A DNA stretch of 64,000 nt from the NCBI GenBank assembly GCA_965203325.1, contig OZ241875.1, positions 3,776,001 through 3,840,000 of the forward strand, given 5' to 3'. A program made the position numbers and the translations under genes. This document shows, one piece after another, positions 27,873 to 36,063 of this stretch. Under the pieces are notes generated by a model that saw only the letters and a program-made list of their open reading frames with translations, searched no databases and was not told where the DNA came from. The stretch is from a bacterium (lineage in GTDB: Bacteria > UBA8248). Each line of letters starts with the position of its first letter. Positions within the stretch are counted from its first letter, which is position 1.

Positions 27873-28004
27873 GTTGTTCGGTCCTTATGAGATATCTGAT
27901 AGATGTTGATTTCACTTTTTTGTTTTTTGCGATGAATCCGAAAAATAGCGCAGATGAATCGCCTTCGTCAATTCCGTCGGGCTACTCGATTCGTTTCGCC
28001 AAAA

Positions 28005-28763
28005 TCAGAAAATGGCGGCAAGCCCCTCGAAGTTCATCACCACGAGAATACCCCCCATGATGAACAGTATGAGCGTGACGATTCGGAAGAACGCCTGGTC
28101 TGTAAAAATGTTGTAAATCTTCGTGCCCACGAAAAAGCCGAGCAGCACGGGCGTCGTCAGGATGAGGATGAGCCACAGGGCCGTCGCGCCGATGTAGCCC
28201 GCCGCTGCGATGGAGGCGATGGCCGCGACTCTGAGCACGACCTGGCTCGCGCTCAGCACGAACAGGTAGCGCTCCTTGGAGATTTTCATCCCCGTGAGGT
28301 AGGAGGCGATGACGTGGGAGGGGATGTTGATGGTGCCCAGCATCAGCCCTGCGACCGCTCCCATCCCCAGGGATCGCTTGAGCGAATCTTCGGGAGCGGG
28401 TTTCTCGGGCTGGAGCCATTGCCAGACGATCTGGCATATGATGAAGGCGCCCAGGATGAATTTCATCAGGCGCGGGTCGGTGTTCAGGAGTATCGTGAGG
28501 CCGGCGGCCAGACCCACCAGGCTCATCGAGAAGAAGGGGATGAAGGGTCTCAGACCCTCGTGGACGGCGGCGCGCGTCCGCCAGGCGTTCATGAGGCTCG
28601 TGCACAGGGTGGGGATGGAGATGACGGCGATGGCCGTCGGCAAGTCCCAGAAGATGGCCACGGTGGGCGTCGTCAGGGTGGCGAAGCCGAACCCGCCCAC
28701 CGCCTTGAGACCCGAGCCGACGAATGCGGCGCAAAAAACCAGAATGTATACCAGAGGACTCAA
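28005..28763 (-). CDS. TauE/SafE (TSUP) family membrane exporter
   Basis: GSGLKAVGGFGF and about 8 TM segments; start uncertain (TTG at 28763 chosen). Confidence 0.8.
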   Translation of the reverse strand: MSPLVYILVFCAAFVGSGLKAVGGFGFATLTTPTVAIFWDLPTAIAVISIPTLCTSLMNAWRTRAAVHEGLRPFIPFFSMSLVGLAAGLTILLNTDPRLMKFILGAFIICQIVWQWLQPEKPAPEDSLKRSLGMGAVAGLMLGTINIPSHVIASYLTGMKISKERYLFVLSASQVVLRVAAIASIAAAGYIGATALWLILILTTPVLLGFFVGTKIYNIFTDQAFFRIVTLILFIMGGILVVMNFEGLAAIF

Positions 28764-29024
28764 GATAACCCCGTCAAAAAGAATTTTTACGCCGGGCGAG
28801 ATGAGGCTGAATGCGTCTCTCTGAGACGTGAACGGCTCATTGCGAGAAATCCACAAACATGGCGCTCAACCTTGACGCTGCTGCGTTTATGTCGGCATTA
28901 TAACCGCCAACCTTGGGTACGGAAAATCTCACAGGCTTGTTCCATCATTATGTGCCGGATGCCCCTTTTCGGTATCTGGGTGACGGTGAAGGACAGGCTC
29001 CGCCACTGGAATCGAGGGTTTTGA

Positions 29025-30095
29025 ATGGAATTTTCGTTGTTTTACATCCTGTATCGTCCCGAAGACATGACCGAGACCCAGGTCCATGAGGATATGATCA
29101 CGGAGAGCATACTGGCGGACGAGTTGGGCTACTCTTGCGTATGGTACGCCGAGCATCACTTCTCCCGCGTCGGGATGATCCCCGACCCCCTCCTCATCTG
29201 CGCCGCAGTCGCGCAGAAGACGAAAAAAATTCACCTGGGCACGGCCATTTCCATCATGTCGTTCCACGACCCCACCCGGCTGGCGGAGCAGGCCGCCATG
29301 GTCGATCTCTTAAGCGGCGGCAGGCTCGAACTGGGCATCGGGCGCGGCTCCCAGCCCAAGGAATTCCAGGGGTTCGGCGCCAAGCCGTCGGAAAGCCGCG
29401 AGCGCCTGAAAGAGGGGCTGCATATCCTCTCCCGCCTCCTGGAAGGACAGAAGGTGACGTATCAGGGCCGGCATCATCAGTGCGCGGACGTGGAAATCTT
29501 CCCCAAGCCCCTGCAAAAGCCCAGGCCCCCCATCTGGCTGGCGGGCACCAGCCCCGAAACCTACACTTACGCGGGCGAGAACGGCTTCAAGGTAATGGCG
29601 TCTGCGGGCTTCACGGGTCCGGAAGTCTACAAGCAGAAGTTCGGGCTGTATGAGGACGCCATCAGAAAATCGGGCGGCGACCCCGCCGGAATCGAGAGGC
29701 CTCTGGTTCACCATATCCACGTGTGCGACGCGGTGGATGCGGAGGAATACTTCAACCTCACGGTGGAGGGCGAGGGCGAGTACCTGCGCTACCGGGCGAA
29801 GATGAACGAGGTGGAAATGCCCGAGGAGGAGGCGAAGCACTTGAAGCGCAACTGGAGCTATGAGCTGGACGTCGCCGAGATCGTCAGGGGCGGCGGCATC
29901 ATCGCCGATCCGGAGGCCGTGGCGGAAGACATTTGCAGGCTGCGCGATGAGTACGGGGTCAATCATGTCATCCTCGCGCCCTGGCGCGGGCCGGACCACG
30001 CTTCGGTGATGCGCTCGATTGAGAGCTTCGCCAACGACGTCATGCCGCTGGTGAACGCGACCGCGCCCGTCGGCTCGAATGGAAGTCAGACTTGA
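29025..30095 (+). CDS. LLM-class flavin-dependent oxidoreductase (luciferase-like), paralog A
   Basis: WYAEHHF, AEQAAMVDLLSGGRLELGIGRG, PKPLQKPRPPIW. Confidence 0.92.
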   Translation: MEFSLFYILYRPEDMTETQVHEDMITESILADELGYSCVWYAEHHFSRVGMIPDPLLICAAVAQKTKKIHLGTAISIMSFHDPTRLAEQAAMVDLLSGGRLELGIGRGSQPKEFQGFGAKPSESRERLKEGLHILSRLLEGQKVTYQGRHHQCADVEIFPKPLQKPRPPIWLAGTSPETYTYAGENGFKVMASAGFTGPEVYKQKFGLYEDAIRKSGGDPAGIERPLVHHIHVCDAVDAEEYFNLTVEGEGEYLRYRAKMNEVEMPEEEAKHLKRNWSYELDVAEIVRGGGIIADPEAVAEDICRLRDEYGVNHVILAPWRGPDHASVMRSIESFANDVMPLVNATAPVGSNGSQT

Positions 30096-31172: not shown

Positions 31173-31571
31173 ATGGCGCTGATACCCGAATCTCATGCCG
31201 GCATTCTCGACACCAAGGCCCTCCTGTATCTGGGCACACAGAACAAGGACGACTCACCGCAGGTCTCACCCGTGTGGTTCGGGACCAACGGCGACATCAT
31301 CGAGGTCAATTCGGCCAAGGGGCGTCTCAAGGACTTGAACATGCGCGCAAGGCCCAAGGTGTCCATCGCCATCGTCGACCCCGAAAACGCCTACAGGTGG
31401 GTGGGGATCCAGGGCACGGTGGTGGAGATCACCGAGAACGGGGCGGATGCGCACATCGACGCCCTGGCGAACAAGTATCTGGGCGTGGACAGCTATCCGA
31501 ACCGCCGGGAGGGCGAGGTGCGCGTGATCTACCGCATCCGGGCGGACAAGGTATTCACGATGGGCGCGTAG
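31173..31571 (+). CDS. PPOX-class (split beta-barrel) probable F420-dependent oxidoreductase
   Basis: PQVSPVWF, GRLKDLNMRARPKV, HIDALANKYLG. Confidence 0.85.
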   Translation: MALIPESHAGILDTKALLYLGTQNKDDSPQVSPVWFGTNGDIIEVNSAKGRLKDLNMRARPKVSIAIVDPENAYRWVGIQGTVVEITENGADAHIDALANKYLGVDSYPNRREGEVRVIYRIRADKVFTMGA

Positions 31572-31621: not shown

Positions 31622-32677
31622 ATGAAATTCTCGCTTTTCTATATCCCTGCCTGCCAGGAGGGAGAATCCTACAAGCACGAGTTCGATCAGCTGATCGAAC
31701 AATGCGAAGTGGCCGACGGACTCGGCTACGACACCGTGTTCCTGGCCGAGCACCACTTCTCCCGCGTGGGCATGTGCCCCGACGCCCTGATGGTCGCACT
31801 CGCCATCGCGCAAAGAACCAGGAAGATCAGGATCGGCACCGCCATCTGCATCATGCCCTTCCACAATCCGGTGCGTCTGGCCGAACAGGCCGCCCTTGTC
31901 GACGTGCTGAGCGGCGGCCGTTTGGAGTTGGGCGTCGGTCGCGGCTCCCAGCCCAAGGAGTTCCAGGGCTTCAACGTCTCCCCATCCGAGAGCAGGGAGA
32001 AGATGCAGGAGGGCCTCGAAGTGATGACCCGCCTGCTGGAGGGGGAATGCCTCACCTATCACGGGAAGCACTACAGCTGCGTCGACGCGGAGATTTTCCC
32101 CAAACCCATCCAGAAGCCGCGCCCCCCTATCTGGCTGGCCGGCACGAGCCCTGAAACCTACGTCTTCGCAGGCCAGAGGGGATACAACATCATGGCGTCG
32201 GGAACCTTCAAGGGGCCGGACGTGTATCTCGAGAAAATGGCGCTCTTCCAGGAAACCGTGCGGGGCCGGGGCGGCGACCCGAACGATTATCCCTCCCTCA
32301 TGGCGCATCACGTCCACGTGTGCGACGACCCTGAACATGCCTGGAGGCAAATCGAACCCTCCGAATCCTGGTACCTCTCCTACCGAAGTGCCGTGAATTC
32401 CATCGAAATGCCGCTGGAGGAGAAAGAGGCCCTCAAGCGCAACTGGAGCTACGACGTCGACATCCGCCAGGTCATCGAGGGCGGCGGCGTCATCGGCCCG
32501 CCCGATAAGGTGATCGCCGATCTCAAGCGGCTCCAGGCGGAGTTTCAGGTGAATCACATCATGATCTTCGTGCTGCGCGGCATCGCCCAGGACGAGGCGA
32601 TTGAATCCATAGAGCGGTTCGCGAAAGAGGTGATGCCCGCGTTCGCAGAAGAGCGCGCGGCGAGTTCGAGCGATTAA
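31622..32677 (+). CDS. LLM-class flavin-dependent oxidoreductase, paralog B
   Basis: FLAEHHF, GGRLELGVGRG, PKPIQKPRPPIW; close paralog of 29025-30095. Confidence 0.92.
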   Translation: MKFSLFYIPACQEGESYKHEFDQLIEQCEVADGLGYDTVFLAEHHFSRVGMCPDALMVALAIAQRTRKIRIGTAICIMPFHNPVRLAEQAALVDVLSGGRLELGVGRGSQPKEFQGFNVSPSESREKMQEGLEVMTRLLEGECLTYHGKHYSCVDAEIFPKPIQKPRPPIWLAGTSPETYVFAGQRGYNIMASGTFKGPDVYLEKMALFQETVRGRGGDPNDYPSLMAHHVHVCDDPEHAWRQIEPSESWYLSYRSAVNSIEMPLEEKEALKRNWSYDVDIRQVIEGGGVIGPPDKVIADLKRLQAEFQVNHIMIFVLRGIAQDEAIESIERFAKEVMPAFAEERAASSSD

Positions 32678-32701
32678 CATCGGTATCGAGGAGAGAGGAG
32701 A

Positions 32702-33301
32702 ATGTGGATATCCCCATTAAGGCTGAATGACGCCGAAGAACCCGCGCGCGGCATACTCGAAGGCATCCGGGAGAAACGAGGCGCGGTGCCCAAGCTGCTG
32801 CTCACGATGGCGCGCAGGCCCCAGGTTCTGAACGGACGCCAGACGATGAACATGGCCGTCCACGGCGGCAATTCGACGCTGGGCCAGAGGCGCGAGGAGC
32901 TGATCTCCTACTACGTCGCCACCATCGGCGGGTGCTATGGCTGAACGATGAACCATGGCCAAGCTTTCCGTGCTGAAAGCGGCGACGACGTAACGCTGGC
33001 CGACGTGGCCACCGTGGTGACGGACAGGGACAATTCTCCGGCCCTCGACGATGCGGACAAGGTGATGCTCGCCTTCGCCGAAAAACTCACGTTCGACCAC
33101 TACGCCATGAGCGAAGCGGACCTGGACTCGCTGCGCGAGGCGGGCTTCTCGGATGAGAACGTGCTGGACATCATCGGCTCGGTGTCGTACCGGAACATGA
33201 GTAACCGGCTGAACATCGCGCTCGGTCTGGACGCCATAGAACCCGAAGGCCCCGATGAGTTGATGGAGGTGGTGCGCTTCTCCCGAACCGCGCGGGCTTG
33301 A
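32702..33301 (+). CDS. AhpD/CMD peroxidase-related protein, predicted selenoprotein (CYGU; TGA at 32942-32944)
   Basis: ORFs 32702-32944 and 32948-33301 share a frame; joined read is RREELISYYVATIGGCYG-U-TMNHG...MLAFAEKLT...LREAGFSDENVLDI...NMSNR; SECIS-like hairpin follows. Confidence 0.82.
32958..32983 (+). promoter_or_regulatory. putative bacterial SECIS element
   Basis: GCC-aa-GCTTTC-cgtgct-GAAAGC-GGC hairpin; loop begins 24 nt after TGA with G at loop position 2. Confidence 0.6.
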
Positions 33302-33420
33302 CGACATACATCCGTTCGCCGGCCTTTTGACGCCTGGCCGGTGATTATCAGGCGATTGCTTGCCATCGTTCATTTGCGGTCCACCCAGGCCGCGAAACAA
33401 CGCAGAAAGGAACCGTTTCT

Positions 33421-34191
33421 ATGTCAGACCTCACCATCCGTCCGCTGAACTGCGGCACCATCCATACGGATTACTCCAACATGGTGTATTGGACGAATTT
33501 CGGGACGAAACTCGAGATTCCCTCGTTCATCTACATGATCGAGGGGGCGAAGGATCACGACGGCAATGACGTGAAGGTCGTGGTCGACACCAGTTTTCTG
33601 GACCCCGAGCGCGGCGGCGCCCCCTGGCCCGCGAGCCGGGAGCCCGGCCAGGGCGTGCGCGAACAGTTGGAAGGCGCCGGCTGGAAGCCCGAGGATGTGG
33701 ACATCCTCATCCTTTCGCACCTCCACTGGGACCATTCGCAGAACTGCGATCTCTTCACCAACGCGGTCAAGTACGTCTGGGCGGAGGAGCTCCAATACTC
33801 CATGTGTCCGGTTGCGCTGCAGGCGAAGCCCTACGACGCGCCGGTCCACCCCAACACCCGCTGGCCGGTGATCGCCCAGCAGGGCATCATCTTCGAGCCC
33901 ATCTGGAAGGACAATACCGAGATCGTGCCGGGCGTCACCTATTTCCACACGCCGGGCCATACGCCGGGGCACTGCTCGGTCGCCGTGGAGACGCGCGTGG
34001 GCACCTACGTCATCGCCGCCGACGTCATCCAGATAAACGAAGGCCTCGAGCGCCGCGTTCCCGCCGGCCAGATGTCGAGCATGCGCGACGCGATGGATTC
34101 CATCCACAAGTGCATCGAGCGCGCCACGAAGGAGGAATATATCCTGCCCGGGCACGAGATTACCGTGCTCGAGAAGGAAGTGTATCCATAA
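33421..34191 (+). CDS. metallo-beta-lactamase fold hydrolase, AHL-lactonase-like
   Basis: SHLHWDHS, TPGHTPGH, AADV, LPGHE. Confidence 0.9.
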   Translation: MSDLTIRPLNCGTIHTDYSNMVYWTNFGTKLEIPSFIYMIEGAKDHDGNDVKVVVDTSFLDPERGGAPWPASREPGQGVREQLEGAGWKPEDVDILILSHLHWDHSQNCDLFTNAVKYVWAEELQYSMCPVALQAKPYDAPVHPNTRWPVIAQQGIIFEPIWKDNTEIVPGVTYFHTPGHTPGHCSVAVETRVGTYVIAADVIQINEGLERRVPAGQMSSMRDAMDSIHKCIERATKEEYILPGHEITVLEKEVYP

Positions 34192-35176: not shown

Positions 35177-35617
35177 ATGCGGCTGACCGTTCAGACAGAC
35201 TATGCCCTCAGGATGCTGATGCACCTGGCCTGCCACGCCGGTGCTTTGGTCACGATCCACGAGATCGCGGAGCGATACGGGATCTCGAAAAACCATTTGA
35301 TGAAGGTCGCACATGCGTTGGGCCGCGCAGGGCATATTGAGGCGATTCGCGGGCGCAACGGCGGCCTCCGGCTCGCCAGGCCGGCGGCGAAGATTCCCGT
35401 CGGGACGGTGGCGAGGCACACCGAACAAAACAGCCCCCTCGTCGAGTGTTTTCCGGGCGGAAGCGGGGGGTGCCTGGTGATGCCGCACTGCAGGCTGAAG
35501 AGCGTTCTGGCCGAAGCGCAGGAAGCCTTTTTCACCGTTCTCGATCGCTATACCATCCACGATCTGGTGAAACGCAATCCGGCGCTTCTCGAATTGCTTG
35601 CAGGAGACAGCGCATGA
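35177..35617 (+). CDS. nsrR: Rrf2 family regulator, NsrR-like
   Basis: MRLTVQTDYALR, ISKNHLMKV, RGRNGG, three Cys (ECF...C...C). Confidence 0.85.
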   Translation: MRLTVQTDYALRMLMHLACHAGALVTIHEIAERYGISKNHLMKVAHALGRAGHIEAIRGRNGGLRLARPAAKIPVGTVARHTEQNSPLVECFPGGSGGCLVMPHCRLKSVLAEAQEAFFTVLDRYTIHDLVKRNPALLELLAGDSA

Positions 35618-36063
35618 ACACCACACATCTCAACATCGTGGGAGAACGCCGGGCAGAAGTCCAGGCGAAAGCCGCCGCGATGGGGGTCGACGAGGCTTAC
35701 GTCTCTGAGCTCGTGAATGCTTTCTACAGCCGCATCCGTGAAGATCGGCTACTCGGGCCGATATTCGATGAAGCCATTCGCGATAGATGGGGGCATCACC
35801 TCGAGAAGATGAAGGATTTCTGGGCGACGGTGGCCTTGAACGCCGGGCGTTATTCGGGGGAACCGATTCAGGCCCACAAGAAACTCGTGGAGGTCCAGTC
35901 GTGGCATTTCGACGTCTGGCTGGAAATGTTCGAAGAAACCTTGAGAGACACGGCGCCGACGCCGGAGGCGGCCGCCTATTTCATGGAGTACGCCGTGCAA
36001 ATCGCCAAAGGGCTGCGAATCGCCATGTACGGCGCGGGCGGTTCCGGGCACCCGGTGGCGTGA
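35614..36063 (+). CDS. group III truncated haemoglobin
   Basis: LVNAFYSRIRED.LLGPIF, WGHHLEKMKDFW, YSGEPIQAH, HFDVWL. Confidence 0.9.
   Translation: MNTTHLNIVGERRAEVQAKAAAMGVDEAYVSELVNAFYSRIREDRLLGPIFDEAIRDRWGHHLEKMKDFWATVALNAGRYSGEPIQAHKKLVEVQSWHFDVWLEMFEETLRDTAPTPEAAAYFMEYAVQIAKGLRIAMYGAGGSGHPVA

Follow-up and report, generated by a model that had tools for sequence, protein, structure and literature searches.

The window analysed here, a 64,000-nucleotide stretch of bacterial DNA (GTDB lineage UBA8248; contig OZ241875.1, positions 3,776,001 to 3,840,000), contains at 32702-33301 of the forward strand two short open reading frames (ORFs) that share a frame and are separated by a single TGA. 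This raises the question of whether the TGA ends a small gene or is read as selenocysteine (Sec) within a longer one. The original prediction, made from the sequence of the window, had proposed a hidden AhpD-like selenoprotein with a CxxU motif. Our results support one intact gene for a 199-residue AhpD-like selenoprotein in which UGA 32942-32944 is read as Sec, a reading to which we assign a probability of about 0.92.

The first ORF (32702..32944, 80 aa) ends at the TGA, and the second (32948..33301, 117 aa) starts 246 nt, or 82 codons, after the start of the first. Nothing lies between them but TGA 32942-32944 and one ACG codon, so that 32702-33301 (+) forms a single 199-codon frame interrupted by one in-frame TGA, just as had been proposed. 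The readthrough product has 199 residues and the motif GGCYG-U-TMNHG (C-Y-G-TGA-x-x-x-H). The gene comprises the following features:

32690..32700, + strand: Shine-Dalgarno-like purine-rich stretch GGAGAGAGGAG, directly 5' of the ATG, read from the sequence
32702..33301, + strand: full reading frame for the 199-residue AhpD-like selenoprotein, predicted Sec at 81, terminal TGA at 33299-33301
32897..32899, + strand: Glu66 codon, 15 residues N-terminal of Sec81, aligned with Glu118 of M. tuberculosis AhpD
32933..32935, + strand: Cys78 codon TGC, position one of CxxU, with Cys or Sec at this column in 25 of 25 aligned sequences
32942..32944, + strand: in-frame TGA, predicted Sec81, position two of CxxU, with TGA in 27 of 27 orthologous places and Cys in PDB homologues
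32954..32956, + strand: His85 codon of CxxUxxxH, invariant in the alignment of 25 sequences

Public collections contain the exact 80-aa and 117-aa halves as separate 'hypothetical proteins', in some examples with adjacent locus tags, and the public protein clusters of the two halves have 57 and 93 members, respectively. The joined 199-aa sequence, with Cys substituted for Sec, was absent from the public protein collection queried. The expectation that annotation would split the gene was borne out by these entries. The same gene calls agree with an alternative in which translation really ends at the TGA of a split gene or pseudogene, producing two small proteins or the 80-residue N-terminal part alone, and the window also has an ATG one codon past the TGA. 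The conservation of the frame argues against this alternative. We performed a six-frame search of 61 genomes (the genome carrying the window and others from its genus, family, order and class, and further genomes) and found 27 orthologous places with 60-99% identity in 26 of the genomes. All 27 kept the frame and contained exactly one TGA each. At the genus level, the orthologous place was found in 22 of 23 genomes, the missing genome being 79% complete. The fetched orthologue sequences had the TGA at the identical codon (26/26), and the clade defined at E<=1e-30 comprised 52 full-length places, of which 52 had TGA and none had Cys. Homologues that lack the TGA have Cys at its column (C-S-F-C at loci L060 and L061, C-E-Y-C at L062).

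The part of the gene downstream of the TGA evolves like the part upstream. The ratio of nonsynonymous to synonymous substitution rates (dN/dS) was 0.08-0.18 in the upstream part (codons 1-80) and 0.16-0.20 in the downstream part (codons 82-199) in six pairwise comparisons; in two more, the synonymous sites were saturated. The Met83 codon, the ATG just past the TGA, is replaced by ATA in one orthologue (L026), by CTN in three (L044-L046) and by GTG in another (L047), giving Ile, Leu or Val; because it is not conserved, a restart cannot account for the downstream frame. A stop at this codon would also part Cys78 from His85 inside the active site, and the family model and the fold described below both span the junction. 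A true stop is thus highly improbable, and the integrity of the gene is established.

Even less credible is a sequencing or assembly error in an ordinary CxxC gene, which the original prediction had named as a possible pitfall. The same codon occurs in 26 independently assembled genomes, and the site is crossed by contigs of two DNA runs, each from a different study, with no change at 32942-32944 among the differences listed. As far as assemblies can tell, these observations refute an error. Contigs from two metatranscriptome libraries also span the site, again with no change at 32942-32944 among the differences listed; one (X16) covers 32487-33700 at ~91% identity and another (X15) covers 32834-33020. 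The small word shares of these RNA-library contigs (0.12) give no basis for a statement on habitat.

We then assigned the joined protein to a family. It matched the TIGR01926 model ('peroxidase-related enzyme') with 110.1 bits against a cut-off of 81.8, over residues 2-176 and across the TGA, and in a six-frame search of the genome with this model the match at the gene scored 102.3 bits. The gene was not a member of two more specific models, scoring 47.5 bits with NF053654 ('YciW-related (seleno)protein', cut-off 310) and 27.8 bits with NF041238 ('AhpD_rel_CFYUT', cut-off 175). The query in the Pfam/NCBIfam, orthologue and PDB searches carried one spurious terminal residue, from reading through the gene's own stop TGA, whereas the alignment and the fold prediction were made with the protein of 199 residues. 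The best sequence matches in the PDB were 3c1l, 6k40 and 2pfx (E 3e-18 to 2e-17), and in all three a CxxC lies over C78-Y-G-U81. Cys at the TGA column, which the original prediction had named as a check, was therefore found both in these structures and in the genomic CxxC forms L060-L062.

A profile built from 25 homologues found M. tuberculosis AhpD (1gu9), with query residues 61-99 on chain residues 112-150. In this match C78, U81, H85 and E66 fall on residues 130, 133, 137 and 118. In the M. tuberculosis enzyme these are the two catalytic cysteines, of which Cys133 is the nucleophile, the histidine and the glutamate. In the alignment of 25 sequences, the motif columns C78 (Cys or Sec), U81 and H85 were invariant. 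The Glu 15 residues before the Sec was present in the window protein and in most of the 25 rows, and two paralogues with a UxxU motif have Gln there and Glu one residue earlier. The AlphaFold2 model was of high confidence (pLDDT 94.4, pTM 0.89) and all-helical, with ten helices, and a Foldseek search with it returned 3c1l, 2prr and 6k40 as the best matches (probability 1.00, template modelling (TM) score 0.69-0.76). In the model, Sec81 occupies the second slot of the AhpD redox motif, at the beginning of helix 79-92. These results indicate that the protein is an AhpD-like redox enzyme of the TIGR01926/COG2128 family with a predicted AhpD fold.

We also searched the 4.39-Mb single-contig genome carrying the window for the Sec machinery. 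The results showed selA (511.6 bits), selB (392.8 bits, ~1 kb downstream of selA) and selD (333.2 bits), each above its curated cut-off, together with a tRNA-Sec of 75.9 bits against a gathering score of 47, which ARAGORN called as SeC with anticodon TCA. The machinery that the original prediction had looked to is present in full. The selD gene (G000:C1:1726679-1727641 (-), locus L011) itself contains one in-frame TGA, and its product, selenophosphate synthetase, is probably a selenoprotein. Sec-containing selenophosphate synthetases are known from many bacteria.

The same genome contains 12 TIGR01926-like places, 10 of them with an in-frame TGA. In all 10 the TGA is at the second-Cys position of CxxC, and a hairpin, in most cases with a GGUC loop, comes after each. 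AhpD-superfamily selenoproteins are markedly expanded in this single genome. Examples of the TIGR01926-like places on G000:C1 are:

1754367-1754897
280533-281048
1653326-1653847
2407301-2407744
1432172-1432618
370434-370958
3728968-3729516
3261440-3261646

These data bear on the alternative that the UGA is read as a residue other than Sec, either as Cys or Trp by near-cognate decoding or through a lineage-wide reassignment. Selenium in the protein is something that we infer, and Cys stands at this column in the homologues without TGA, both of which would suit such a reading. However, TGA closes the selenoprotein gene, and among the 87 open frames in the window with at least 250 codons, a set that includes non-coding frames, it ends 44 and is the most common terminator, indicating that TGA is not reassigned. 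The complete Sec system, the constrained RNA region after the codon, and the recurrence of TGA at the same active-site position in 10 of 12 AhpD-like places, with a hairpin after each, also argue against it. We regard decoding as another residue as very unlikely.

Two overlapping hairpins follow the TGA and could act as the Sec insertion sequence (SECIS):

32958..32983, + strand: hairpin B, the best SECIS candidate, 3 + 6 bp with a 2-nt bulge and the loop CGUGCU at 32969-32974
32954..32972, + strand: hairpin A, the overlapping alternative (CAUGG-N9-CCGUG), at the position of the SECIS hairpins of paralogues and distant homologues

Hairpin B, the one described in the original prediction, is present as claimed, with GCC/GGC and GCUUUC/GAAAGC stems, a G at loop position 2 and 24 nt from the TGA to the loop; we judged it by criteria that we take to be those of bSECISearch. 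It is the most stable local fold. Since its energy is not significant, we used conservation as the argument instead. Across 188 sliding segments of 12 codons, the eight with the fewest synonymous differences all begin at codons 81-88, directly after the TGA; their values are 0.124-0.154 synonymous differences per comparable codon pair, and the median is 0.347. The mean codon entropy in 26 orthologues was 0.37 for codons 82-95, compared with 0.86 before this stretch (codons 1-80) and 0.78 after it (codons 96-199), and individual codons were fixed, namely Arg90 CGT (26/26), Glu92 GAA (26/26) and Ala88 GCT (22/22). Hairpin B lies within this RNA region behind the TGA, which is conserved beyond the protein that it encodes.

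Within the genus, hairpin B is the minimum free energy (MFE) structure of the orthologues, and its nine pairs are kept in 10-13 of 13 distinct orthologue sequences. One compensatory change, from G-C to A-U, was found in three related sequences. A family-wide covariation score for hairpin B was reached by none of 500 shuffles; we dropped it as support because the signal mixes groups that do not form hairpin B, and relied on per-group pair counts.

Hairpin A might instead be the SECIS in use, as in the paralogues, in which case the gene would still encode a selenoprotein and the RNA detail alone would differ. It is formed by the His-Gly and Phe-Arg codons, and of 25 sequences from the wider family, 22-25 retain its five outer pairs. 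The UxxU paralogues and the distant CxxU homologues have hairpin A as their MFE structure, in many cases with a loop of the GGUC type, and in the 75%-identity orthologues the two hairpins are about equally stable. In the window and its genus, however, hairpin A has 5 bp and a 9-nt loop beginning with CC, and reaches -3.7 (in the window) to -5.5 kcal/mol versus -10.6 to -17.4 kcal/mol for hairpin B. Among the 13 orthologues its outer five pairs occur in 13/13 but its inner pairs in 0-1/13. The outer pairs show no covariation; the conserved His-Gly and Phe-Arg codons dictate them, and the synonymous constraint reaches codons 92-94, past hairpin A. Eight other AhpD-like Sec genes of the genome have clear hairpins with loops at about +25 to +28 from the UGA, mostly GGUC, and the loop of hairpin B lies near this position, at +28 to +33. 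We consider hairpin B the probable SECIS of this gene and hairpin A an unlikely, though not far-fetched, substitute. If so, the SECIS would have shifted ~8 nt downstream within the orthologue group of the window. The group has lost the inner pairs of hairpin A and has a stronger hairpin ~8 nt downstream, so that a SECIS may have migrated here within the coding region.

Several points weigh against the selenoprotein reading of the locus or against parts of it. The energy of hairpin B is unremarkable (-9 kcal/mol, z -1.48, with 20 of 200 shuffles folding equally well), its 75-nt context gives z 0.10, and an Rfam search of 32850-33100 returned no family even at E <= 10. The claim of a SECIS-like hairpin has fared unevenly: a conserved hairpin lies where it was predicted, but its energy is not above that of shuffles, it has no Rfam match, and hairpin A overlaps it. 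The covariation of hairpin B is thin, as the neighbour of its sole compensatory pair breaks in the same three related sequences, and what paralogues and distant homologues conserve is hairpin A. The Pfam CMD score of the joined protein passes its threshold only just (24 bits, cut-off 23). The retention of the TGA in the RNA-library contigs was read from the differences listed and not from a direct view, and these contigs are no proof of transcription, strand or level. Finally, the insertion of selenium at codon 81 is suggested by sequence evidence, a peroxidase chemistry is suggested by family membership, and the enzymes with an AhpD fold also include the debrominase Bmp8.

The selenoprotein gene is located in a cluster of oxidoreductase genes, in agreement with the flavin/F420 context claimed for it. 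The other members of the cluster are:

29025..30095, + strand: LLM class (luciferase-like) oxidoreductase gene 1, PF00296 200.7 bits
30144..31124, + strand: LLM class oxidoreductase gene 2, Mer-like, F420-type models best but under their cut-offs
31173..31571, + strand: F420-dependent PPOX-class oxidoreductase gene, TIGR03618 92.3 bits against a cut-off of 79.05
31622..32677, + strand: LLM class oxidoreductase gene 3, PF00296 217.2 bits, ending 24 nt 5' of the selenoprotein gene
33421..34191, + strand: metallo-beta-lactamase-fold (MBL) hydrolase gene, lactonase-like, PF00753 58.7 bits
34216..34623, + strand: second, small CMD-family gene, without CxxC, PF02627 36.8 bits
34644..34683, + strand: terminator-like hairpin (11 bp, 8 G-C) with a T run, closing the gene cluster

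All genes of the cluster lie on the + strand with gaps of 24-119 nt. The hydrolase scored 75-78 bits with the models of N-acyl-homoserine lactone (AHL) lactonase and 4-pyridoxolactonase, under their cut-offs. We surveyed the synteny in 25 related loci (L064-L088) and found the order PPOX–LLM3–AhpD(Sec)–MBL in 25/25, even in the 75%-identity group. The small CMD gene was syntenic in 24/25, the miss being at a contig end, and LLM2 in 21/25. The genome also contains cofD and cofG, so that F420 is plausibly available. We propose that the selenoprotein gene is co-transcribed with the F420/flavin-type oxidoreductases, the lactonase-like hydrolase and the second CMD protein, as the gene arrangement suggests. 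Among the 12 window ORFs scanned (8 in or beside the cluster and 4 upstream), none matched an AhpC-type family; the whole genome was not searched for AhpC. Upstream, an ORF of 356 codons at 27954-29024 (+) matches no Pfam family and ends exactly at the start of the first LLM gene. Beyond the terminator lies an Rrf2-family regulator gene (35177-35617, +), which 8 of the 25 related loci also have close to the cluster and which is overlapped by a frame at 35446-36063 (+) with a weak match to bacterial globin (23.4 versus 21 bits).

Among the genomes searched, the orthologue group is confined to one family of a Nitrospinota-labelled phylum, and it is Sec-only in its clade; the phylum was represented by 51 species. 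Most of the DNA runs that contain the stretch are labelled as sponge metagenome.

Outside the window, the genome encodes a paralogue that is 48% identical (G000:C1:2238326-2238922 (+), locus L090:995-1591) and has two in-frame TGA codons three codons apart, giving the UxxU motif G-G-U-Y-G-U-A-M-N-H-G. Its TIGR01926 score of 81.8 bits is exactly the cut-off. Of the 51 genomes searched in the phylum, 24 have the double TGA, at 24 places in all; they include 19 of 23 in the genus and members of two other genera, and the double TGA was seen directly in all six fetched sequences. A single A-type hairpin would need to serve both UGAs. We found no UxxU AhpD-like protein described in the literature, our coverage of which was incomplete and did not include a query of BSepDB itself; in the portions consulted, reviews give the AhpD-like family as having one Sec only, in CxxU (PMC13188914).

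The family, fold and RNA context suggest how the gene would work. UGA 32942-32944 would be decoded by SelB with Sec-tRNA(Sec), directed by an intragenic SECIS hairpin just 3' of the UGA, most likely 32958-32983. Sec81 would replace the second Cys of the AhpD motif C-x-x-C-x-x-x-H, the position of the attacking nucleophile in M. tuberculosis AhpD. Its selenolate, with His85 and Glu66 as a proton relay, may attack an oxidised substrate, either a hydroperoxide or the disulfide or sulfenate of a partner. Cys78 could then resolve the product to an intramolecular selenenylsulfide, which a thiol or reductase system would reduce. The enzyme probably serves the neighbouring F420/flavin pathway and not general peroxide defence.

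A more specific and doubtful proposal is that the Sec-only clade supplies a dedicated catalyst to the conserved PPOX(F420)–LLM–AhpD(Sec)–lactonase-like–CMD pathway of sponge-associated Nitrospinota-labelled bacteria, with a small organic molecule as its substrate, alongside a UxxU sister with a diselenide redox centre. By analogy with Bmp8 and the Sec-dependent deiodinases, a candidate chemistry would be selenol-dependent reductive dehalogenation, and a second candidate is the reduction of an organic peroxide or lactone intermediate. If this were true, the diselenide centre of the UxxU paralogue would be unlisted for the AhpD-like family.

Whichever substrate it acts on, the selenoprotein belongs to a family that has long been known, as the original prediction had noted. 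The Sargasso Sea study that first described the 'AhpD-like protein' (COG2128, CxxU) as a selenoprotein family gave 27 sequences for it (Zhang, Fomenko & Gladyshev 2005, PMC1088965). In the Global Ocean Sampling (GOS) data, AhpD-like 1 ranked fourth in abundance among the families, with 299 Sec sequences and 902 Cys homologues (Zhang & Gladyshev 2008, PMC2398784), and the family also appears in a 2026 review (PMC13188914). The BSepDB paper places Nitrospinota-labelled metagenome-assembled genomes, with 48-54 selenoproteins, among the richest bacteria (PMC13326102). The window gene resembles AhpD-like 1 (COG2128 YciW/TIGR01926) of the Sargasso Sea and GOS in its family model, in a CxxU with Sec second, in having one Sec and a SECIS, here a candidate hairpin, directly 3' of the UGA, and in marine origin. 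It differs in that its orthologue group is Sec-only, is restricted to one family of a Nitrospinota-labelled phylum, lies in a conserved F420/flavin cluster and is filed in GenBank relatives as two hypothetical proteins. The proteins of NF053654 and NF041238 are likewise AhpD-superfamily CxxU selenoproteins, but the window gene is far under both cut-offs.

Among proteins of known structure, the closest are the TIGR01926-type entries Mlr4105 (3c1l), D. radiodurans AhpD (6k40), 2pfx, 2prr and 2oyo. They are full-length homologues with 24-33% identity (E 3e-18 in the single-sequence search, 9e-45 in the profile search; TM 0.69-0.76) and place CxxC over CxxU. Each is a Cys protein, and the majority come from structural genomics and have no defined substrate. 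M. tuberculosis AhpD (1gu9, 1knc), a Cys enzyme that reduces AhpC via lipoamide, shares C-x-x-C-x-x-x-H, the upstream Glu and the helical CMD/AhpD core (TM 0.46), but the relation is remote (profile E 1e-3) and no AhpC or lipoamide partner adjoins the window gene. Bmp8 (6ohi, 6ohj), a debrominase of bromopyrrole biosynthesis, also has the AhpD fold (TM 0.71, profile E 1.8e-9). Its C82A mutant scores 6.7 bits below the wild type in the profile search, indicating that Cys82 lies on one of the two conserved Cys/Sec columns. Unlike the window protein, Bmp8 is a Cys enzyme, with an identity of 16-17%, and no halogenase genes were seen beside the window gene; the similarity in fold and profile leaves a non-peroxidase chemistry possible.

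Compared with these systems, the gene is a true member, missed by annotation, of a selenoprotein family that has been known for many years, and what is new is its membership; knowledge of Sec decoding and of the AhpD-like family is unchanged. Because the gene is filed as two adjacent hypothetical proteins, its orthologue group is split in databases, and the selenoprotein and AhpD-like counts for these uncultured, largely sponge-associated bacteria are too low. The gene adds one more replacement of the nucleophilic Cys by Sec in the AhpD motif, in a lineage that has made this swap many times, and its conserved F420/flavin cluster gives a concrete setting for finding a substrate in an uncharacterised enzyme family.

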